A stretch of DNA of 64,000 nt, from contig JAGWLG010000006.1 of the NCBI GenBank assembly GCA_028864975.1, positions 63,878-127,877 on the forward strand. The letters are read 5' to 3'. The notes beneath the pieces are model-generated. The model was not told where the DNA came from. It did not search any database and saw only the letters and a program-made list of their open reading frames with translations. Below, piece after piece: positions 6,471-57,694 of this stretch; position 1 is the first letter of the stretch; each line of letters opens with the position of its first letter. The position numbers and the translations under genes are program-made. The stretch comes from Thermoplasmata archaeon. GTDB lineage: Archaea; Thermoplasmatota; Thermoplasmata; Lutacidiplasmatales; UBA184.

Positions 6471-7454
6471 ATGTCTCGTCCCGCGCTGCTCCGCCGGGGC
6501 TCGGGCGTCCGGGTGGTCGCTCCGTCCCGAAGCCTGTCGATCGTGGCCCCAGCGGTACGGGCCATCGCCCTTCGTCGCTACTCGGAGATGGGACTCGAGG
6601 TCTCGTTCGGGCGGCACGTGGAGGAGTCCGACGCCTTCGGATCGACCTCGGTGAAACACCGGGTCGAAGACCTCGTCCGTGCGTTCGAGGACCCTTCCGT
6701 CGAACTCCTTCACACGGTGATCGGGGGCTTCAACGTCAATCAGCTGCTCCGAGAACTGCCCTATCGAACGATCGAACGAAACCCGAAGGCCCTGTGCGGC
6801 TACAGCGACATCACCGCGCTCCAACTCGCGATCCACGCCAAGACCGGTCTCATCAGCTTCAGCGGCCCCCACTATGCGACCTTCGGGATGCTCCGAGGGT
6901 TCGAGTACATCCGGGATCAGTTCCACCGTGCCCTGTTCGACCGGGGCAGCTTTGAGCTGCCAGCCTCGTCGCGATGGAGCGCGGACCCGTGGTACCGCGA
7001 CCAGGTGCATCGGCACTTTCGTGCCAATCGGGGACCCTGGGTCGTCCAGCCCGGGCGTGCCCGAGGGAGGCTGCTGGGCGGCAACCTCTGCACCTTGAAC
7101 TTGCTCCAGGGGACCGAGTTCCTTCCCGACCTCGAAGGTTCCGTCCTGTTCGTCGAGGACTGCGACGACGATGGGACCCCGGTCTACTTTGACCGGAACC
7201 TGCAGTCCGTTCTGCACCTGCCCTCCGCCCGGGGGCTGAGGGGCCTGGTCATCGGACGATTCCAACCTAAGGCGAAGATGACGCGGAAGCTACTGCAGGC
7301 GATCGTCAGGTCAAAGTCCGAACTCGAGGGCCTCCCTGTGGTGGCTGACGTCGACTTCGGCCACACCTACCCGATGTGTACGTTCCCGATCGGAGGTAGG
7401 GTGGAGCTCGAGGCCCGAGGGGGACGCGTGCGGCTCACGCTCAGCGCGACCTGA
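6471..7454 (+). CDS. S66 family peptidase (LD-carboxypeptidase / MccF-like)
   Basis: VVAPS, IGGFN, GYSDITA (Ser), GGNLCTL, LFVED (Glu), DFGHTYP (His). Confidence 0.9.
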   Translation: MSRPALLRRGSGVRVVAPSRSLSIVAPAVRAIALRRYSEMGLEVSFGRHVEESDAFGSTSVKHRVEDLVRAFEDPSVELLHTVIGGFNVNQLLRELPYRTIERNPKALCGYSDITALQLAIHAKTGLISFSGPHYATFGMLRGFEYIRDQFHRALFDRGSFELPASSRWSADPWYRDQVHRHFRANRGPWVVQPGRARGRLLGGNLCTLNLLQGTEFLPDLEGSVLFVEDCDDDGTPVYFDRNLQSVLHLPSARGLRGLVIGRFQPKAKMTRKLLQAIVRSKSELEGLPVVADVDFGHTYPMCTFPIGGRVELEARGGRVRLTLSAT

Positions 7455-7593
7455 CCCGCAGCCTTGACGCGGCTTTGGAGCCGTGAACACTGGGGTAGTG
7501 ACTGGAGCTTGTGCAGGAGGCGGAGGTGGGACAGGGGATGTGGCGGGTCATGCTCGACCCTTCGCCAGTGTGGCGCCGCCTGCGACGAGGCGC

Positions 7594-7884
7594 TTAATCA
7601 GGGAGATCGCGTCGCCAGACCCTGCGATCTGAGGGGGAAAGTCCCGGGCGGCCGGACCATGGTGGTCGGTGGCCGCCGTTCGCCCTCCGTGCGAAGAGGA
7701 ACCCCCTGATTCTGGTCCAAGGGCCTCGAAGGGAGGTCCTGCGATCCGCTGCCTCTACGGGGGGATCCAGCTCCAGCACGTTCGCGAGCCCACCACCGCA
7801 GTATTCGTCGCTCAGGAAGGTCGTGAGCCCATCGTCCATCCGTACGCTTCCGCAGGTCCAGGGACGCCGCGCGTAGTTCGCCAT
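7594..7884 (-). CDS. hypothetical protein (96 aa)
   Basis: ATG preceded by AGGAG/AAGGTG motifs; fills an otherwise empty gap; no recognisable family. Confidence 0.3.
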   Translation of the reverse strand: MANYARRPWTCGSVRMDDGLTTFLSDEYCGGGLANVLELDPPVEAADRRTSLRGPWTRIRGFLFARRANGGHRPPWSGRPGLSPSDRRVWRRDLPD

Positions 7885-7996
7885 GTTCGTGCACCTTAGA
7901 TCTCCTAGGTGCGCGCGGGGTCTTCCACCAGACGCACCGAGGGAGGTCCCGACCCGTGCTCACGACCGGTGAGCCCCGAGAGGACCTACGGGGAGG

Positions 7997-9100
7997 TCAC
8001 TTCTTCCTTTCCGTGAGGACCGTCCCGATGCCCCGCAGCAGGTCCTTGCCCTCAGTGCTGAGTGAGGAGGAGGCGATGCCTCGCTCGGCCTTGGCCACGA
8101 GTTCGCGGATCCGCTTTTCAGAGTAGTCGAAGCTCCCGGCCTCCTCCAACACCGTAAGGGCCTCGTCGAAGGACTCGGGGGAGGCGAGGGCGTTGCCGAG
8201 GACCTTGCTGAGCGCCTCCCGGCCGTCCCGACCGGCGTGGGCCCATCCGTGGACCACGAGGAGAGTGCGCTTACCCTCGTAGAGGTCGTTGGCGCTCTTC
8301 TCCGCCTCTTCTCCAGGGACCTCGCGCGCCCCCAGGATGTCGTCCCTCAGCTGGAACGCGACGCCCAGGTCATCGCCGACGACCTGGAGCATCCTCAGGG
8401 TTGACGTGGAGGCACCGCCCAGGATGGCTCCCATCCTCAGCGGGGAAGAGACCGTGTACACGGCGCTCTTCAGACGGTGGACCGTGAGGACGTCCTGCTC
8501 GCGGACCTTCTGGACCGGGCGGACGCCGTTCAGAACGTCCAACACTTGTCCGAAGGCCGTCGCACGGGTCATCTTCCGGTACTCCTCGAGCAAGGACCGC
8601 ACGCGCCCGTCGGGGCAGCGGCACGAGAGGAACAGGTCCATCGTCGAAGGTTCCAGAAGGTCGCCGAGGGTGATCGCCATGGCTTCGCCGAAGTCGGCGT
8701 CGCTTCCGGACAGCCGACGCGATCCATGGAGCTTGGCGAGCGACACGTGGAGGGTCGGCCCCCCTCGTCGGGTCTCCCCGTGGTCCATGATGTCATCGTG
8801 AATGAGCATCCAGCTCTGGAAGGCCTCGAGCGCGGCGGCGGCAGGGAGCGCTTTGCGGAGCTCCCGACCACCCGCGAGATGGTACCCGGCGAGCAGGAGA
8901 CACGCACGGAATCGCTTGCCGCCCCGGAGCGTGAACTCCTCGACGGCGTCGACGAAGAGCGGTAGGTCCGGGTGAAGCCTTCGCGCCTCCTTCCGCAGCG
9001 CCCGGAAGTGCTGGCGGAGCAGCCCCTCAACGGGCTTGCGCATCGCCAGGAGCTGACCCACGTCCAAGCTTTTCCACCCCCCGGCCGCCTCGACCGCCAC
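7997..9100 (-). CDS. idsA: polyprenyl synthetase (geranylgeranyl diphosphate synthase)
   Basis: RGGKRFR, FARM LIHDDIMD..ETRRG, GQVLD, KSAVYT, SARM FQLRDDIL, DLYEGKRT. Confidence 0.9.
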   Translation of the reverse strand: MAVEAAGGWKSLDVGQLLAMRKPVEGLLRQHFRALRKEARRLHPDLPLFVDAVEEFTLRGGKRFRACLLLAGYHLAGGRELRKALPAAAALEAFQSWMLIHDDIMDHGETRRGGPTLHVSLAKLHGSRRLSGSDADFGEAMAITLGDLLEPSTMDLFLSCRCPDGRVRSLLEEYRKMTRATAFGQVLDVLNGVRPVQKVREQDVLTVHRLKSAVYTVSSPLRMGAILGGASTSTLRMLQVVGDDLGVAFQLRDDILGAREVPGEEAEKSANDLYEGKRTLLVVHGWAHAGRDGREALSKVLGNALASPESFDEALTVLEEAGSFDYSEKRIRELVAKAERGIASSSLSTEGKDLLRGIGTVLTERKK

Positions 9101-49899: not shown

Positions 49900-51504
49900 A
49901 TGCTGGAGGGCTCCGAGGACTACCATGACCTCCCATCGCTTCTGCGCGGGAAGGCCCGCAAGAACGGGGAGAAGGTCGCCATTCGGTTCCCCGGCCATGA
50001 GCTCAGCTACGCCGACCTCCTCCGCCAGGCGGAGCGGGCGGCCGGTGGGCTCGCCGAACGGGGCCTCCGTCATGGCGAGAAGATCGCCTTCCTTCTCTAC
50101 AACGCCCCCGAGTTCCTGACGACGTGGTACGGGGCCAACCTCCTTGGCGCCGTGATGGTCCCGCTCAACACCGCGCTCAAGGGCGAGCTTCTTCGCTACG
50201 AGCTCGAGGACTGCGATGCCCGGTTCTTGCTGGTCGACCGTCGGCTCCACGAGGAGTTCGCCAAGGTCGCCGGCTCGGTCAAGCTGGACCGGGTGATCGT
50301 CTTCGACCCCGCGGGCGAGTACGCCGAGCTACCGGCGGGGACCGAGGCGTTCCCCGACCTCCTCACGGCGCGAGGGGTCCCCTCAGAGGCCGTCCCTCCA
50401 ACACCCGTGGAGCCCGCCTCCATCATGTACACCTCAGGGACCACGGGTCCTCCCAAGGGGGTGGTCATCCCCCACGAAAAGTACCTCTCGACCGCCAAGG
50501 CGATCTCCGGCCGCAGCGACCTCAACCCCTCGAGCGTCCTCTTCAGCGAGCTCCCGCTCTTCCATTGCAATGCCCAGGAGATGACGATGCACACGGCGCT
50601 GCTCAACGACCTGACGGCAGCCTATGCGGAATGGTTCAAGGCGTCGAACTACTGGGAGGTCGCGCGAGAGCTCCACGCGACGCACGTGAGCCTGCTCATT
50701 GCGATGATCAACATCCTCTACAAGCAGCCGGAGAAACCCTCCGATCGGGAGCACGGGGTCCGGGTCGCCCTGACCGCGGGAACCTCGAAGGACATCTGGC
50801 CCCTTTTCGAGCAGCGCTTCGGGCTCCGGGTGATCGAGCTCTACGGGATGACCGAGTGCGGCTGCACGACCATCATGAACCCTCCGGACCACGTTCGCGT
50901 GGGGTCCGTCGGGCTCCCCCTGGACTTCGTCGAGGCGGAAGTGGTCGACGAGAACGATCGGCCGGTTCCTCCTCGGACCAAGGGCGAGCTGCTGGTGCGT
51001 CCAAAGCGGCCGTTCACGATGATGCTCGAGTACTACAAGAAGCCCGAGAAGACGGTCGAGGCCTGGCGGAACCTTTGGTTCCACACCGGTGACTTCGTCT
51101 GGAAGGACGAGGACGGCTACTTCTACTTCGTAGAGCGGAAGAAGGACGTCATTCGTCGTCGCGGCGAGAACATCGCGCCCTACGACGTCGAGAAGGCCCT
51201 CAACACCCATCCCGCGGTCTTCGAGAGCGTCGTGGTCGGGGTGCCCTCTCCTTTGGGCGAGGAGGACGTCAAGGCCTACGTCCTGTTGAAGCCCGGGGCG
51301 AACGTGGACCCTGCGGAGCTCTTCCGGCACACGGCGGCCGCCCTGCCCTTCTTCATGGTCCCGCAGTTCATCGAGTTCGTCGACGAGATTCCCAAGACGG
51401 CGAACCAGAAGGCCCAGAGGTACCTGCTTCGCTCGCATCCCCACGGGCCACGCAACTACGACCGCGACAAGCTCGGGGTCCAGGTCGCCCGCCCTGCCCG
51501 GTGA
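49900..51504 (+). CDS. AMP-dependent acyl-CoA ligase (CaiC-like)
   Basis: YTSGTTGPPKG, LPLFH, YGMTE, WFHTGD, FVERKKDVIRRRGENI, PKTANQK. Confidence 0.9.
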   Translation: MLEGSEDYHDLPSLLRGKARKNGEKVAIRFPGHELSYADLLRQAERAAGGLAERGLRHGEKIAFLLYNAPEFLTTWYGANLLGAVMVPLNTALKGELLRYELEDCDARFLLVDRRLHEEFAKVAGSVKLDRVIVFDPAGEYAELPAGTEAFPDLLTARGVPSEAVPPTPVEPASIMYTSGTTGPPKGVVIPHEKYLSTAKAISGRSDLNPSSVLFSELPLFHCNAQEMTMHTALLNDLTAAYAEWFKASNYWEVARELHATHVSLLIAMINILYKQPEKPSDREHGVRVALTAGTSKDIWPLFEQRFGLRVIELYGMTECGCTTIMNPPDHVRVGSVGLPLDFVEAEVVDENDRPVPPRTKGELLVRPKRPFTMMLEYYKKPEKTVEAWRNLWFHTGDFVWKDEDGYFYFVERKKDVIRRRGENIAPYDVEKALNTHPAVFESVVVGVPSPLGEEDVKAYVLLKPGANVDPAELFRHTAAALPFFMVPQFIEFVDEIPKTANQKAQRYLLRSHPHGPRNYDRDKLGVQVARPAR

Positions 51505-51507
51505 ACG

Positions 51508-51966
51508 GTGAGGGGGGACGTGGTCACCGGCTTCCCCCCTCCTTCCGCGCCGAGGGGTCCCCCCCGGGTGCTCCTCGACACGAACGCGCTCTTCCTACCG
51601 TTCACGCGGGGCTTCCCGTTGGAGCGGGAGATCTTCCGTTTGATGGAGGGCGCACGGATCGAAGTGCCCCAGAGCGTGCTCGGAGAGCTCGACCGCCTCG
51701 TCGGCCGGGGTCGCGCCCAAGCGAGGGCGGCCCGCGCCTATGCCGAGAGGTTTCCCGTCGTGCTGACCGACCTGAAGGGAGACGCCGCCCTGGAGACCCT
51801 AGCGAGGGACCTCGGCGCGGTGATCGTGACGGCCGATCGAGAGCTTCGCCGCCGCCTTTACGCGAAGGGGATGAAGGTCCTCTTCCCCCGGGGGGAGAAG
51901 CACCTCGCCTTCGCCCAAGGACCGCGTCCGAAGAGAACAGGACGGGCGGGGCTCAGTCCACGCTGA
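51508..51966 (+). CDS. PIN domain protein (Fcf1/Utp23-like)
   Basis: VLLDTNAL, VPQSVLGEL, GDAAL, IVTADRELRRRL. Confidence 0.8.
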   Translation: MRGDVVTGFPPPSAPRGPPRVLLDTNALFLPFTRGFPLEREIFRLMEGARIEVPQSVLGELDRLVGRGRAQARAARAYAERFPVVLTDLKGDAALETLARDLGAVIVTADRELRRRLYAKGMKVLFPRGEKHLAFAQGPRPKRTGRAGLSPR

Positions 51967-52813
51967 AACAGCGTTCCAACGTCGAGTAGAGGAGGGCCTG
52001 ACCTCCAGGACGCGGCAAGGCCGGCCGGTCCAGCCCCGAGTCCAGGAGGGTCCACGTGTTGTCCGCGCGGACCCCCCGTGGGGAGATCACGAACTGGAAG
52101 TGGTCGAGGGCGCTCGCCGTGGGAGCATCGCTCATCGACACAAACCAGGGCAGGCCGCAGGAGAGGTTCAGCGCCGCGAGCAAGAGGCGCAAGGCCCGGA
52201 TACGTTGTTCGGAGGTGCTGTTGCGCATGAGCAGCAGGGTCCGGCCCGTAGGGTTCGTCAGGAGGCGGGTCACCAAGGTCTCCGCGGCCGCCAACGTGAG
52301 ACAGCGACGGAGGCCTTGGGTCAGGGATCCCAGACCCACGGAGGACGAGAGCGGGACCGACAGGGCATCGATGTCGCCCACGGCGTTGGGCTGCTTCGTG
52401 TCGAAGTCCCGGATCGCCTGTTCGAGCCGCTCCATCGTCAGGGTTCCATTCTTGAGCGAGGCGAGGGGGGCGATGACCGTGTGGTTCGCGAAAGTTGGCC
52501 GGCCCATCTCGTCATCGGGCCCGCGCCCCACCACGGAAAAGAGGACCTCCTGCAGCGACGGCGCCGGATGGACCATCACCAGGCTCACCTTGCCCTCCTG
52601 GAGGCTCTCCCCCCGGATCGGCGTGTAGAACCCCTGGAGGCGTTCGTCGTAGAAGGAGAGGTTCAGACCGCGCGAGACCGACTTGATGTCGTACCCCTTC
52701 CCCGGGGTCACCCCGTAGACCCAATGGTCGAGCTTGACCTCGGAGCCCTCCCCGGAGGAAGAAGGCCCGAGAGACCCGGTCGGTGACGCCCCTGCGGAGG
52801 GAGGTGTGTCCAT
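51953..52813 (-). CDS. GTPase-associated protein, GAP1-N / uDENN(longin)-like N-terminal domain
   Basis: LDHWVYG..GYDIKSVS...DDEMGRPTFANHTVI resembles the 'D..GR....H' motif of GAP1-N/DENN-like domains. Lies 18 bp downstream of a GTPase gene. Confidence 0.55.
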   Translation of the reverse strand: MDTPPSAGASPTGSLGPSSSGEGSEVKLDHWVYGVTPGKGYDIKSVSRGLNLSFYDERLQGFYTPIRGESLQEGKVSLVMVHPAPSLQEVLFSVVGRGPDDEMGRPTFANHTVIAPLASLKNGTLTMERLEQAIRDFDTKQPNAVGDIDALSVPLSSSVGLGSLTQGLRRCLTLAAAETLVTRLLTNPTGRTLLLMRNSTSEQRIRALRLLLAALNLSCGLPWFVSMSDAPTASALDHFQFVISPRGVRADNTWTLLDSGLDRPALPRPGGQALLYSTLERCFSVD

Positions 52814-52831
52814 GGCGCCTCTTCGAGGACC

Positions 52832-53833
52832 TCAAACGGCCCGAAGCTGGTCGCGCTCGTTCACGGAATCCGGGACCTTGTGCGCGATGTCGCGGAAGTG
52901 CTCGATGAACGCGACGTACTCGTCGTAGGAGTAGTCCGGTTCGGCCGCTCCCAAGGCGCTGGCATCCTTCACCACGATCTGGGAGCGACCGACGGGGGTC
53001 ATCCCTCCCTCCGCGGTCTGGGTCTTGATCCAACTGAAGAAGTACGCGGCCTGGTCGAAGCTGACCCCGGCGACCTTCCCTCCCCGAAGCTGCGCCAGGG
53101 TCTGGGGGAGGAAGACCCGGAGGATCGCTTCGGCGTAGTCCCGGCGTGCCTTCTCCTTATCGGCCGGCGGGATCCCTTTGTGGAGCCCGAGCTTCGCCAT
53201 CACGTCGTCGGAGAGCTGGTCGTGCTTGGTGAGCACGATCGCGGGATAGATGAGCGGGAGGCCCTCGGCGAGCCCCTGGGTCTTCAACCGCTGGTATTCT
53301 TGCACCTTGTAGGTCTGGAAGTTCACGGCGAGCTTCGCGACCTCCGTGTCGTACCGGAGCATCTGCTTGTACTGGGGGGAGTCGTGCTGGAGCGTCATCT
53401 TGCTGCAATCGACCAGGATGACCACGACCATGCTCTTCAGCAGCTGCTGGATGATCGGACTGGAAGCGACACCGCTCTCGATGAACTCCTGGACATCTTC
53501 TCCTGAGACGTCGTAGGCCCCGAACTGGAGCACGGAGAACGGGTTCAACCACTTCGTCGGGGGGACCCAGCGCGGGAGCTTCCCCATCACGGTGCGCCGG
53601 TAGCCGAAAAGGAACTCGACCTGCGTGATCTCATCCTTGAGGGTCGCGCTCGGGAACTGGCCCGAGGCCATCCCCTCGTAGATCGAGCTCATGAACTTGA
53701 GCGAGGAGGGCGGCGCATGGAATCGGAAGGTGTCCACCACCTGCGTCCCATACCTCACCTGGGCCGCGTAGAGCAATCCCAAGAACGTCGTCTTCCCCGA
53801 AGCACGGTCGCCTAGGATGGCCGCCGGACACAT
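52832..53833 (-). CDS. TRAFAC-class GTPase (double-GTPase-system-like)
   Basis: G1 GDRASGKT, G2 PSAT, G3 YDVSGE, G4 TKHD. Confidence 0.85.
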   Translation of the reverse strand: MCPAAILGDRASGKTTFLGLLYAAQVRYGTQVVDTFRFHAPPSSLKFMSSIYEGMASGQFPSATLKDEITQVEFLFGYRRTVMGKLPRWVPPTKWLNPFSVLQFGAYDVSGEDVQEFIESGVASSPIIQQLLKSMVVVILVDCSKMTLQHDSPQYKQMLRYDTEVAKLAVNFQTYKVQEYQRLKTQGLAEGLPLIYPAIVLTKHDQLSDDVMAKLGLHKGIPPADKEKARRDYAEAILRVFLPQTLAQLRGGKVAGVSFDQAAYFFSWIKTQTAEGGMTPVGRSQIVVKDASALGAAEPDYSYDEYVAFIEHFRDIAHKVPDSVNERDQLRAV

Positions 53834-53940
53834 GCGGTCGGCGATTCGGGGGTCCGTCTTAATGGTTGGGAGCCTGCGAGCCTACCGAACCTCGCCCGTT
53901 CCGCGAGGTCCCAAATACGGGCCCCGCCTCGGGCCGACGG

Positions 53941-54846
53941 GTGTCCAGCACGATCATCGTCGGGGCCGAAGGCTCCGGTCGGACCTTCTTCTCCGCGCTT
54001 CTCTACTCGTCCCTCGTCCGGTACGGTGGGGAAGTGGGGGATGCCTTCCGGTTCCACGCTCGCCCCGAGTCCCTCGCCGCGTTGGGGACGCTTTACGAGT
54101 CGGTTCGGGCCGGTGAGGCCCCCCGATGGCCCGACTCGGCCAACGCTCCTCTCGTCCTCGACCTCCAGTTTCCCGGTCACTCGCCCAGGGGGCTCCTCGC
54201 CCACCTTCATCGGGACCGCGATGCGCAGGCCTCCTCGGGCACGGCCCTGCTGCTCGAGCGGTGCTCCACCGATGAGGTCGCCCGCTTCGTCGCCTCGGGA
54301 GGGGCGCTCACCTCGCTCGGACAGGCGCTCCTGGAAGGAGGCGCGCTCGTGGTCCTGCTGGACGGCTCCGGCCTCAAGATCGACCCGGGCACGTCCCAGC
54401 CCCTGGCCCACCCGTGGGACCCCGTGCTGAGCGGTCTTCTTCGAGCCCTCAAGCTCGCCGTACGGGACCACCCGGGAGCCAGCAAGGGTCCGATCACACC
54501 CCTGCTGGTGGTGACGAAGTACGACCTCGTCCCTGACAAGGTTCGAGCGACCCTGCTGCCGAACGGGGGGACGATGGAGGGCTGGACCGAAGAGTCTCGG
54601 GTCGTGGCCGCCAGGGAGCTCCTTTCCCGATACCTGCCGCAGAGCCGTGCGGAATGGACCTCGGGGATGCCCGCGGGCCTCCAGCTCTCCCCGCCCGTGG
54701 CCTTCATCAGCTGGGTGCGGCCCGATGGAGGTTCCGGGCCCGCGGCCCGGCTGAAAGGTCATGACACGCCGGCGCGGGGATGGGAACCCGACTTCCCCTA
54801 TTTGGAATACCGCGATCTCATCGAGCGCCTGCGGCGGCTTGGCTGA
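53941..54846 (+). CDS. degenerate paralogue of the neighbouring GTPase (probable pseudo-GTPase); alternative ATG start at 53866
   Basis: G1 GAEGSGRT, G4 TKYD. Shares RYG..V.D.FRFHA.P.SL, F.SW and EPD..Y.EY with 52832-53833. Confidence 0.75.
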   Translation: MSSTIIVGAEGSGRTFFSALLYSSLVRYGGEVGDAFRFHARPESLAALGTLYESVRAGEAPRWPDSANAPLVLDLQFPGHSPRGLLAHLHRDRDAQASSGTALLLERCSTDEVARFVASGGALTSLGQALLEGGALVVLLDGSGLKIDPGTSQPLAHPWDPVLSGLLRALKLAVRDHPGASKGPITPLLVVTKYDLVPDKVRATLLPNGGTMEGWTEESRVVAARELLSRYLPQSRAEWTSGMPAGLQLSPPVAFISWVRPDGGSGPAARLKGHDTPARGWEPDFPYLEYRDLIERLRRLG

Positions 54847-57694
54847 CGGGGTCCCCCTGCGCGAGATCCCCCCTCGGTGTCGCACGGTACGAGATGCCGG
54901 TCGCAGAACCGGAAAGTGCGACCTGGCGCTCGACATGCCATGAGGTCAGGTCCCACGGTCCGAGGAACGGCTGCGCGTCCTCTCCGTGTCCCGTCAGCCG
55001 GTTCAGCTCGACCTCGAGGTATTCGCCGTCGGTCTCGATCTCGGGGGTCAACGCTTGTTCGTTCTCGGAGGCCTGGAGCAAGGAGACCAGGAGCATCGGT
55101 CCGGAAGGCTTGGTCCATCCCACCTTGCGGAAGAGCTCGCGCGCCTCCTTGGCCTTGGGGTCCGTGAGCAGGCCCATGAGGGCGCGGTAGGTGGGGCCGT
55201 CCCGCACCTCGGCGGCCGGACGGCCGAGGCGACCCTGGCCTTTCTTGCTTCGGAGCACCTGCAACCAGGCGTCAGCTGTTGTGAGGTCGGCGCGCGCCCA
55301 GACGTCCCCGGCGACGCCCGGGGCAACGCCGCCACTCGGGCCGACTCCAGGCGCCGTGGCGAAGGAGGACGCGGTACCCACCGCCTGCTGCTCCGCTTCG
55401 AGCGCGTAGAAGCCCCCGCCGGAGTCCTTTCGAATGTGCACGGTGAGCAGAGTATCGGAGGAGGCATCGTGCCAACGCAGGACGACGTACCGGTCGAGGT
55501 CCACGTCGTACGCAAAGAGCTCCCGAAGCGCGGCGGCGACCTTCGGAGCCTCGGAGCCTCGGGAAAGGTCCGACAACCGCTCCAGCGGAACGCCCGAGGC
55601 CCCTGCGGGGTGAGACTCCAGGTCGTCCACGAAGGCTTGGGCGACCTTCGCCCGCGTCCGTCCGGAGGGTGAGCGAGCGCTCATCCACTCCGGTTCGGAG
55701 AAGGCGACGTAGATCATCCCTACGAAGAAGACGACCACGATGACGTAGGCCGGGACGTAGGTCAGGAGACGCTGGGCGCTGATGGTGGCCGACCAGGTCG
55801 CCCCCTGCGCCAGGTCGACCAGAAAGCGCGCCTCCGTCCCAGCCCAGATCGCGAAGACGGAGAGGTAGAGCAGGGAGGCGGCCCACGTGGTCCGACGCGA
55901 CCCTCCGAGGTTCCAGGTCGAGAAGGCGGCCCATCCGAAGAAGATCGTCAGCGACAGGAGCGCGAGGAAGGCGACCACCGCGACTAGGCTGAGCCCTCCC
56001 CCGATGACGAACGAGCTTGGGGTCCCGAAGAGGGACCCGGCGACGAGGTCTGCGACCGCCCGAGAGATCTCCGCGAGACCGAGCACGAAAAGGTAGGAGG
56101 CCACACGGACGGTCGGGAGGGCGAGGACTCGATCCGGTGCGTTCTGCTTCCGGAAGCGAGAGAAGAGCAGCCCCCCCCACTCCGCCAGTGGATACAGGCA
56201 GAGCACCAGGGCAGGGGGACCCAACACCGCCGCGGGGACCGCAAGGGATTCGAGAGGTGTGAGCAGGTGGCCGTGGAAGGCCGAGTACACGCCCACGAAG
56301 GTGATCGACTCGGCGACCACGAATGTGGCGAAGAGCACCAAGAGGACTGGGAGCGCGCGGACCAGGGCCCGTGCCGTGAGCGCGGACGTGGCGTTGCCCA
56401 TCCGAGCCAGCAGGGAGAGCCCCTCCTCCGCGTCGGAAGAGGGGGCGAAGACGCCGCGGAAGGCGGGACCGACCGTGGCCGAGGGGGACGCGGAGGTCCC
56501 CTGGCGGGCTCGCTCGAACCATCCCTGGGCGATGTCCCGGAGCAGCTTCCTCATCCTTTCGGGGTCTTGGAGGTGCCCACGCAAGATCGGGACCAGCGTG
56601 CTGAGGTGCGAGGCCGCGCGCGCGAGCTGGGGTGCGGGAACGTCCGCGACCTGCTCCTCGAGGGAGCGCCAGGGGACCTCGTTGAGCGTTCGAACGGCAT
56701 CGATCAAGGGGGTGCCTTCGACGATGTCGACCAAGAGCAGGCGACGAACGTCCGGAAGGTCCTCCTGGGCCGCTGTCCGATAGGGAGAGGGAGCGGGGGA
56801 AGCCGCTGGGGAGACTACGGGGGCCACCGAGGGAGGGCGGGCCGCGACCGGGGCCACGGGACGTACGGTGACGACGGGGGCTGGGATCAGGCGGACGGTG
56901 GGACCGGAGCCGGTGGTCGTCGGAGGGCCTCTTGGGGTGCTCCAGCTCGAGGTTGGGGGCGCGGGACCGGGTCCTCCGACAGGACGGACGCCTTGTGGCA
57001 TGGTCGGCGGAGGGGCCCACGTGGCGACCGGGGGAGGGACCTGACGGGTCGGGACCGCGAACGGAGGAGGACGACCTCCTGATGGAAGCAACGGAGTGCG
57101 CACGTAGGGAGAGGGGCCCATGGGGGGCGGGGGCTCCGCGGGAGCCCGGTCGGCCCGGGCGGCCCGGCGCGAGACCCATGTGCCGACCCCGATGCCCAGG
57201 ACCGCCGCGATCATCGCCCCCAAGAGGAGCAAACTGACGTCCGAAGGAGGGCCAGGAGGAGGTGTCGCCTGGATGACCTGCGACGCGGACGCGTGGGCTA
57301 ACGCACCATCGCTGGCGTAGAGCTGGACCACGTAGGTACCAGGAGACGTGTAGTTGTGGTGGGCGACCGTCCCTGTTCCGACCGACCCGTCGCCGAACGC
57401 CCAAGAGAACTGGTAGGGGGGGACCCCTCCCGAGACCTCCGCCATGAAGGTCTCGTTGAGGGGAGCAGCTCCCTGGAACGAGGAGACGGAGAAGTTCACC
57501 ACGAACTGGGGTGCGATGGACACAGGGCCCTGCAGAGGGATCTCGCTGCGGGTCCCCGCCCAAGGTGCCCGCGAGGGCGCTGCGCCCGGGCTGGCCGAGG
57601 GAGCGAACACCGGGAGGGACAGCAGGGGGATAAGCGCGAGCAGGAGAAGCAGCGAGGCGACTCGAAGCGAGCGCCCCTGCCGACGCCGCACCAT
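54818..57694 (-). CDS. membrane protein: signal peptide, PKD domain, TM, Pro-rich linker, about 6 further TM helices, soluble C-terminal domain
   Basis: PKD motif VSGGVPPYQFSWAFGDG...HHNYTSPGTY; hydrophobic segments counted by eye; ATG at 57694. Confidence 0.8.
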   Translation of the reverse strand: MVRRRQGRSLRVASLLLLLALIPLLSLPVFAPSASPGAAPSRAPWAGTRSEIPLQGPVSIAPQFVVNFSVSSFQGAAPLNETFMAEVSGGVPPYQFSWAFGDGSVGTGTVAHHNYTSPGTYVVQLYASDGALAHASASQVIQATPPPGPPSDVSLLLLGAMIAAVLGIGVGTWVSRRAARADRAPAEPPPPMGPSPYVRTPLLPSGGRPPPFAVPTRQVPPPVATWAPPPTMPQGVRPVGGPGPAPPTSSWSTPRGPPTTTGSGPTVRLIPAPVVTVRPVAPVAARPPSVAPVVSPAASPAPSPYRTAAQEDLPDVRRLLLVDIVEGTPLIDAVRTLNEVPWRSLEEQVADVPAPQLARAASHLSTLVPILRGHLQDPERMRKLLRDIAQGWFERARQGTSASPSATVGPAFRGVFAPSSDAEEGLSLLARMGNATSALTARALVRALPVLLVLFATFVVAESITFVGVYSAFHGHLLTPLESLAVPAAVLGPPALVLCLYPLAEWGGLLFSRFRKQNAPDRVLALPTVRVASYLFVLGLAEISRAVADLVAGSLFGTPSSFVIGGGLSLVAVVAFLALLSLTIFFGWAAFSTWNLGGSRRTTWAASLLYLSVFAIWAGTEARFLVDLAQGATWSATISAQRLLTYVPAYVIVVVFFVGMIYVAFSEPEWMSARSPSGRTRAKVAQAFVDDLESHPAGASGVPLERLSDLSRGSEAPKVAAALRELFAYDVDLDRYVVLRWHDASSDTLLTVHIRKDSGGGFYALEAEQQAVGTASSFATAPGVGPSGGVAPGVAGDVWARADLTTADAWLQVLRSKKGQGRLGRPAAEVRDGPTYRALMGLLTDPKAKEARELFRKVGWTKPSGPMLLVSLLQASENEQALTPEIETDGEYLEVELNRLTGHGEDAQPFLGPWDLTSWHVERQVALSGSATGISYRATPRGDLAQGDPVSQAAAGAR

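Follow-up and report, generated by a model that had tools for sequence, protein, structure and literature searches.

Double-GTPase (DO-GTPase) systems of the GAP1-N2 type were described in a purely computational study that already included a few archaeal cases (Kaur, Burroughs, Iyer & Aravind, eLife 2020, PMC7159879). The DO-GTPases are defined by a conserved glutamate in the Walker B motif, and 38% of their systems hold two paralogous GTPase copies per neighborhood. The GAP1 protein is encoded directly downstream of, or fused to, the DO-GTPase, and GAP1-N2 systems are often membrane-proximal with extracellular domains. In the literature that we searched, no other paper names GAP1-N1 or GAP1-N2, and the other mentions of DO-GTPases are made in passing. 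Here, we analyze a four-gene cassette in a 64,000-nucleotide stretch of the genome of an uncultured Thermoplasmata archaeon from soil (GenBank assembly GCA_028864975.1, contig JAGWLG010000006.1, positions 63,878 to 127,877; hereafter the window). The cassette encodes a predicted GTPase (A), its degenerate paralog (B), a small GAP1- and DENN-like protein (X), and a membrane protein with a PKD domain (M). Its assignment to the DO-GTPase/GAP1-N2 family is, from sequence comparison, very probable. Our overall reading, which we hold with the balance evenly poised, is that it is a divergent and minimal form of the GAP1-N2-type double-GTPase systems, belonging to an archaeal branch with a new fourth component, and that it leans toward a role in biological conflict. 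The original prediction made for this DNA had proposed a new archaeal system. A divergent minimal branch is borne out, while complete novelty is not, as archaeal cases were noted by Kaur et al.; the cassette would be a variant of the kind that they defined rather than a categorically new system.

The predicted GTPase pair

A is a 333-residue open reading frame (ORF) on the minus strand (52832–53833). Its sequence contains the G1 motif GDRASGKT, a switch-I-like FPSAT, the G3 motif YDVSGE, VDCS, and the G4 motif TKHD. Against Pfam, A scores 27.6 bits with DO-GTPase2 (cut-off 27) and 25.1 bits with DO-GTPase1 (cut-off 27), and its best-scoring DO-GTPase stretch spans just the first ~70 residues; the score of B is 11.6 bits. 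When 19 A-family proteins were combined into a profile, it aligned with three archaeal proteins passing the Pfam DO-GTPase models across the whole domain (hhalign 98.9%, E 3e-17, 248 columns). The link to the bacterial double-GTPase systems drawn in the original prediction is thus supported by the profile comparison, alongside the marginal Pfam DO-GTPase2 match. Aligning 27 A sequences with 21 from B shows that GxRAxGK[TS]T, FPxAT, YD[VI][SA]GE, VDCS, and [STA]KxD are invariant or nearly so among the A orthologs, and the Glu following DxxG occupies the position of Gln61 in Ras. Since the YD[VI][SA]GE glutamate coincides with full-length profile homology and a DO-GTPase2 score just above the cut-off, we assign A to the DO-GTPases. 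Judged by its motifs, A is a catalytically intact, active member of the family. A comparison of the A profile with the PDB sequences yielded no solved relative.

B lies on the plus strand (53941–54846) and is paralogous to A, with 29% identity. The longest B ORF opens at TTG 53866, but the likely start is GTG 53941, located 107 bp from the ATG of A. B probably comprises 301 residues, because the orthologs begin a few residues before the P-loop and GTG 53941 is preceded by an A/T-rich element ~23 nt upstream. In the window, B has the P-loop GAEGSGRT, in which Lys is replaced by Arg, and has lost DxxGE but kept TKYD. Across the 21 B orthologs, the Walker A Lys is often replaced by Leu, Arg, or Thr, and the switch-I Thr and DxxGE are gone, whereas [ST]KxD, the full length, and the C-terminal motifs are retained. 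This combination of eroded catalytic motifs and preserved features argues that B is an old, maintained pseudo-GTPase. On the motif evidence, B is a degenerate ancient paralog of A with its guanine-specificity motif retained, in agreement with the earlier proposal of an active GTPase paired with a pseudo-GTPase. A adjoins B here and in most of the loci examined, so that a DO-GTPase pair occupies one neighborhood.

X as a probable minimal GAP1 with a predicted longin-DENN-like fold

X is a 286-residue ORF on the minus strand (51953–52813). It starts 18 bp after A in the same orientation, and the order of A followed by X is found in nearly all loci. For comparison with GAP1, a profile was built from three canonical archaeal GAP1-N2/GAP1-M proteins, taken from a metagenomic locus and two genomes of the class, each encoded directly downstream of a DO-GTPase. 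The X profile matched it over 177 columns (hhalign 90.7%, E 1.2e-6); the value was 26.6% with a single GAP1 sequence and rose to 90.7% with the three. A homolog search from a canonical GAP1-N2 protein returned the query alone, and the GAP1 profile stayed at three sequences. Residues 24–215 of X are collinear with residues 3–194 of GAP1, corresponding to GAP1-N2 (6–97) and much of GAP1-M (155–219). Because this match is collinear with the N2 and M domains, we regard X as a minimal GAP1 composed of N2 and M, with no GAP1-C; longer, fused forms are confined to distant relatives. A "D..GR.....H" loop is common to X and GAP1, and Asp101, Arg105, and His111 of X are nearly invariant, even among members that are 13–25% identical. 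The ESM-Atlas neighbors of X are GAP1-N2 clusters (0.95, 208/256 features).

The AlphaFold2 model of X, built on 41 sequences, has a predicted local distance difference test score (pLDDT) of 88 and a predicted template modeling score of 0.86. It consists of an N-lobe with a beta-beta-beta-alpha...beta-beta-beta-alpha-alpha arrangement, followed by an alpha/beta C-lobe, and closes with one helix (273–284). In Foldseek searches of the PDB, the model matched TagF (9t0n, E 2.9e-6), a chain of the FLCN-FNIP2 complex (6ulg_N, E 5.6e-4), and DENND1B and DENND1A (E ~1e-3, probability 0.98–0.99, with 0.99 for DENND1B). VIA-align, which is independent of Foldseek, gave TagF (Z 9.3, 226 residues, 4.6 Å), a Lokiarchaeal longin domain (Z 8.8), DENND1A (Z 8.2, root-mean-square deviation 5.6 Å, 222 residues), and DENND10 (Z 7.2). 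The N-lobe matches many further longin and roadblock domains. Thus, the original expectation of a longin, DENN, or GAP1-N fold at 51953–52813 agrees with the profile match to GAP1-N2 and with the predicted fold, the longin (uDENN) and core DENN alpha/beta lobes being recognizable in X at the level of the predicted fold only. By model, GAP1 N2 and M together form a longin plus DENN-core-like module.

TagF, a repressor of the type VI secretion system (PDB 9t0n, 6iz8, 2qnu), is the protein whose structure agrees best with the model of X, over both halves. At 7–10% sequence identity, it has the fold alone in common with X. TagF belongs to a type VI secretion cluster, whereas the neighbors of X are GTPases and metabolic genes, with no type VI secretion context. 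We know of no pairing of TagF with a GTPase. The eukaryotic longin-DENN proteins (DENND1A/B with Rab35, 6ekk/3tw8; FLCN-FNIP; C9orf72-SMCR8) have the same two-lobed fold as that predicted for X, and like X they partner genetically with a GTPase; the pairing of X with a putatively heterodimeric GTPase recalls that of Rag with FLCN. In contrast to these proteins, X shows no detectable sequence similarity to the Pfam DENN families and no evident dDENN helical lobe, and its partners are DO-GTPases rather than Rab, Arf, or Rag. No Pfam model, those for DENN and longin included, matched any of the 45 X-family members (X and 44 relatives) scanned. A third comparison is offered by MglA/MglB and the Asgard pairs of Rag-like GTPases and roadblock-longin proteins (6hjm, 8yqg, 9m28), which likewise combine a prokaryotic GTPase with a longin or roadblock partner. 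The longin half of X matches the MglB and Asgard roadblock-longin structures at Z 5.7–8.8. However, the partner in those pairs is one small domain that acts on a Ras-like GTPase, whereas X adds a DENN-core-like lobe, and the cassette GTPases, at ~330 residues, belong to another family.

In the literature searched, longin and DENN go unmentioned in Kaur et al. (PMC7159879), and the link between longin-DENN and GAP1 is made by no searched paper that names GAP1-N1 or GAP1-N2. Queries for TagF with longin returned unrelated material only, and those for TagF with DENN mostly unrelated material. A further-reaching idea is that GAP1 N2+M is the prokaryotic homolog of the eukaryotic longin-DENN module and that the cassette, with its dimer of a live and a dead GTPase, its DENN-fold regulator, and its membrane tether, is a non-Asgard archaeal counterpart of membrane signaling of the Rag/FLCN type, which in the genus of the window would be wired to an extracellular receptor with a PKD domain; we consider this quite improbable.

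The fourth component

M is a 958-residue ORF on the minus strand (54818–57694), convergent with B and overlapping it by 29 bp at the 3' ends. Hydropathy analysis indicates 2 + 6 hydrophobic helices, and the order of elements is a signal or transmembrane segment (TM1, residues 12–30), a PKD ectodomain (residues 75–136; 57287–57472, minus strand), a second transmembrane segment (TM2, residues 153–171), a linker with 26% proline, a helical domain (MN), a block of six transmembrane helices (residues 443–665; 55700–56368, minus strand), and a C-terminal domain (MC, residues 677–958; 54821–55666, minus strand). The Pfam matches to PKD exceed the thresholds (PF18911, 2e-9, 37.8 bits, cut-off 27; PF00801, 6e-9, 36.2 bits, cut-off 23.5), and the description of M as a multi-pass PKD protein therefore holds. 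The positive-inside pattern and hydropathy would put the PKD domain on the outer side of the membrane and leave MN and MC in the cytoplasm.

An alignment of 16 partners, namely the window M and 15 proteins from other loci, defines the M family by a variable N-terminus, a conserved helical MN, and an MC of ~270 residues at the C-terminus. MN carries the signature "FL..DP.ERFD...LN ... RVK.E.DDP ... WYRRS". MC, which is conserved in the partner proteins and is 29–36% identical to those of other loci by BLASTP, comprises two sub-domains with a disordered linker between them. The first contains "AQA.LDDL...PL.RLSELA..." and the second contains "W...W..L......RL..PP......Y..L...........F....W...P.......LL........TD.EYLE.EL". 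The six-helix block, whose bounds rest on hydropathy and this alignment, sits where other M homologs have a soluble "RWGG..SRV.GGRL" segment. At the N-terminus, other members have, for example, a charged coil; a CxxC zinc ribbon occupies this position at L018, and at L016 it is a class III nucleotide cyclase, in a protein with DUF835 at its C-terminus. The AlphaFold2 model of MC has a pLDDT of 80.7. Fold searches of the PDB with it gave no convincing match (best Z 5.2), the first sub-domain being weakly winged-helix-like (Z ~3.8), and an ESM-Atlas search with an M homolog from another locus (L017) gave no usable match. MC showed no relation to the C-terminal regions of GAP1 (hhalign 0.5%). At the distant loci L020 and L021, the M partners have no MC domain.

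The PKD and transmembrane parts of M are confined to the genus of the window among the loci sampled. Three M orthologs of the same genus keep the membrane block at 51–63% identity and the PKD domain at 43–45%. In contrast, among 18 M-family partners, several strong transmembrane segments occur in that of the window alone, 12 have none, and 5 have one weak segment; no PKD was found in the nine non-genus partners scanned against Pfam. These data bear on the proposal that M is an outside-in receptor, in which the PKD domain senses a ligand and signals through the membrane block to A and B, with X as a DENN-type guanine-nucleotide exchange factor (GEF). The predicted topology, the retention of the PKD domain and membrane block in all four genomes of the genus, the frequent membrane proximity and extracellular domains of GAP1-N2 systems (PMC7159879), and the DENN-like predicted fold of X are all compatible with this proposal. 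The genus restriction, however, makes the receptor part a lineage-specific add-on, and the extracellular PKD sensor of the original prediction cannot be the general mechanism. Moreover, few parts of M are less conserved than the PKD region; divergence is higher only in the Pro-rich linker, to which a tblastn search reported no match within the genus. The fold alone does not imply a GEF either, since longin-DENN proteins such as FLCN and SMCR8 are GTPase-activating proteins (GAPs). We therefore regard the receptor model as unlikely overall, although it may hold for the genus of the window.

Conservation of the cassette

To place the cassette in context, ~30 loci were compared, the four proteins of the cassette serving to type their ORFs. 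In ~20 loci from several Thermoplasmata families, the genes for A, X, and B are neighbors of one for a protein with the C-terminal domain of M, in line with the co-occurrence anticipated from the window alone. The usual orders are A, X, and B followed by a convergent M, or B, A, and X followed by a convergent M; gene order thus varies between loci, while the convergent and often overlapping 3' ends with M recur. More distant relatives show X, A, and B in series, or A followed by a nucleoside triphosphatase (NTPase)–X fusion. In 41 relatives, the matches to A nearly always occur as pairs, 1–2 kb apart. The joint presence of A, X, B, and M-like proteins in so many loci argues that their linkage is not due to chance. 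Accidental proximity, or the decay of remnants without joint function, is highly improbable: the lost catalytic motifs of B and the poor conservation of B and M within the genus would be expected under decay, but the four ORFs are intact here and in ~20 loci of several families despite rearranged order, the 21 B orthologs keep their full length, G4, and C-terminal motifs, and the AlphaFold2 models of X and MC are confident.

In the class sample, X occurs in 34 of the 301 genomes and 13 of the 89 genera. At 50% identity, the X family comprises 85 representatives in a collection of 1.84 billion proteins, and its named records derive from uncultured Thermoplasmata metagenome-assembled genomes (MAGs) from soil, groundwater, and sediment, with one exception. 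This exception, L084 (JACPFH010000714.1, 2.2 kb), is a contig in a groundwater MAG labeled as "Deltaproteobacteria" and is probably mis-binned. Single genomes carry two or three paralogous cassettes, and the gene contexts differ between genera. Within the genus, the sequence identity is 91% for A, 74–82% for X, 48–52% for B, and 47–58% for M, compared with 57–85% for the flanking enzymes and 40–54% for two hypothetical flanking ORFs.

A second cassette and related loci

The source genome contains a second cassette (contig C83, L012:5300-11488), in which an SPFH/Band_7 gene (7402–8226) is followed by A' (67% identical to A), X' (42%), and B'. Its M-like protein, which has 699 residues and no transmembrane segment, is divergently oriented from this series. 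In this cassette and in eight other loci of the clade with the A, X, B order, A is directly preceded by an SPFH/Band-7 (flotillin-like) gene, and the window cassette has no SPFH gene. With transmembrane and PKD segments in the window M and an SPFH protein in the second cassette, one genome would possess two membrane routes. Two cassettes with differing membrane links suggest that the system needs to be close to the membrane.

Distant X-family proteins occur in fused forms, namely X–AAA+ (RuvB-like)–DUF835, a HerA/DUF87-like ATPase–X, and TIR–X. The genes for the X–AAA+ and HerA-type fusions still come after an A-like GTPase gene. The N-terminal half of the HerA-like fusion was considered as a possible A homolog and rejected (BLASTP E 0.18), so that a different NTPase is fused to X there. 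At L020:3659-8785, and also at L038, L039, and L041, an A-like GTPase precedes the HerA/DUF87-like ATPase–X fusion, and at L020 the opposite strand carries, just upstream, genes for a Roadblock/LC7 protein and a GvpD-like P-loop protein. At L019:884-4154 (P0110), a protein of 451 residues joins a TIR domain to an X-family domain; a 631-residue TrkA_N/RyR-domain protein follows it, and no GTPase is visible on this 4.3-kb contig. At L016:5993-16221, the third cassette of genome G003, A is followed by X–AAA+ (RuvB-like), and ~5 kb away lies the gene for a 974-residue protein that combines a class III nucleotide cyclase with an MC-like region and DUF835. DUF835 is thus fused to X-family and to M-family proteins at other loci. 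A Joint Genome Institute metagenome contig (L018:1-3647) encodes a 679-residue beta-propeller–DO-GTPase2 protein and an 837-residue GAP1-N2/GAP1-M protein. This canonical pair lies ~1.7 kb from a cassette with the order M, A, X, B, and two systems of the same superfamily therefore stand side by side.

Genomic context in the window

All four ORFs of the cassette lie tightly packed at the positions given in the original prediction, with A and X 18 bp apart and co-oriented, B diverging from A about 100 bp away, and the stops of B and M overlapping. The window has a G+C content of 65–70%, and spurious ORFs are accordingly plentiful; the four cassette ORFs are nonetheless real. The divergent intergenic region between A and B (53834–53940, 107 bp, no strand assigned) contains two A/T-rich, TATA-like elements by sequence reading, CTTAATGG at ~53857–53864 and CAAATAC at ~53912–53918. 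Each lies ~23–30 nt from one of the two start codons, and we infer that they may be promoters of leaderless transcripts. The cassette is flanked by metabolic genes for a urocanase, a NUDIX protein, an AMP-forming ligase, a dienelactone hydrolase, a luciferase-like monooxygenase, and an MFS transporter. A candidate ORF of 162 residues (51501–51989, plus strand) is convergent with X and shares 37 bp with the 3' end of the X gene; Pfam gave no match to it, and it is 46–54% conserved within the genus. The source genome is an 89.6%-complete MAG in 124 contigs. Pfam, NCBIfam, and PADLOC searches of the four proteins produced solely the marginal DO-GTPase and PKD matches, and no fn3 match was found with Pfam among the scanned cassette proteins or flanks.

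Discussion

The cassette shares several features with the GAP1-N2 DO-GTPase systems (PMC7159879; PF19975/PF19993, PF20013, PF20014), including a GTPase of the TRAFAC type that carries DxxGE, a second GTPase gene paralogous to the first, a GAP1-type gene that comes right after a GTPase gene, membrane-proximal parts with extracellular beta-sandwich domains, and up to three copies per genome. It differs from them in that X has just 286 residues, carries no fused variable domain, and is missed by the Pfam GAP1 models. Furthermore, its GTPases have no Zn-ribbon or transmembrane extension and one of them is clearly degenerate. The tubulin, HSP70, and kinase themes are absent, and the family-specific fourth protein with MN and MC has no counterpart in the published systems. 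The single PKD domain of M is, like FNIII, a beta-sandwich.

Several hints point to a membrane-proximal surveillance or conflict function. X is patchily distributed (34/301 genomes), and genomes hold two or three paralogous cassettes. TIR, AAA+, and HerA-like domains are fused to distant X relatives, and a nucleotide cyclase to one M relative. Within the genus, divergence is much more rapid in B and M (48–58% identity) than in A (91%). In addition, one locus (L018) lies beside a canonical DO-GTPase2/GAP1-N2 pair, and the cassette is akin to systems predicted to act in conflict. By this analogy, we favor such a function, although it is the least certain part of our reading and falls somewhat short of an even chance.

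A number of observations weigh against our reading. Regarding the family, none of the 45 X-family members matches GAP1-N2 or GAP1-M in Pfam at E <= 1, the GAP1 comparison profile holds only three sequences, X ends after the M-equivalent lobe so that the three-domain N-M-C architecture of GAP1, in which the C-terminal domains are often variable, is not found and GAP1-C is absent, and the cassette encodes no FNIII-repeat protein. Regarding the function, the literature searched contains no experiment on any DO-GTPase/GAP1 system, which makes the conflict role itself a prediction, and some flanking hypothetical ORFs are at least as divergent as B and M. PADLOC found nothing for the four proteins, and neither Pfam nor PADLOC recognized an effector or toxin domain in the core cassette. 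The cassette stands among housekeeping genes, the locus and its flanks are syntenic in three other genomes of the genus, and A has the highest within-genus conservation of the region. These last findings suit a different account, in which the same switch has a housekeeping role in organizing or remodeling the membrane or envelope, for example through SPFH microdomains or the placement of surface proteins, rather than in immunity. Also in line with this account, the cassettes of one clade, among them the second cassette of the source genome, contain an SPFH/flotillin-like gene, and longin/DENN and roadblock partners of GTPases are typically regulatory. On the other hand, a core function would be expected to be distributed more uniformly than a cassette with patchy spread and contexts that vary by genus, and neither the multiple paralogous copies per genome nor the fusions of distant family members to TIR and nucleotide cyclase are what it would lead one to expect. 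A housekeeping role is therefore possible, but we give it less weight than a function in surveillance or conflict.

Considering the minimal double-GTPase system that we favor, A and B may form an asymmetric dimer of one live and one dead GTPase, acting as a GTP-dependent switch. X would bind the A–B dimer and set the nucleotide state of A. A role of the arginine-finger, GAP type seems somewhat likelier for X than that of a GEF, because the loop with Arg105, Asp101, and His111 in the longin half is nearly invariant; FLCN, SMCR8, and NPRL2 have such a GAP-type role. The constant MN and MC domains of M would dock on the switch, and its variable N-terminus would determine the input or location. 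In this genus, M would put the switch at the membrane behind a PKD ectodomain, whereas the link to the membrane in the second, paralogous cassette of this genome would come from an SPFH/flotillin-like protein.

The DO-GTPase/GAP1 systems are known from computer prediction only and are mostly bacterial. The archaeal branch described here is the simplest form seen, with four small genes and no fused effectors, and would thus be a good starting point for biochemical work on a live/dead GTPase pair and on the regulator and adaptor that go with it. Through its predicted longin/DENN/TagF-like fold, X would connect a GTPase system of prokaryotes with the fold of the eukaryotic regulators of Rab, Arf, and Rag.

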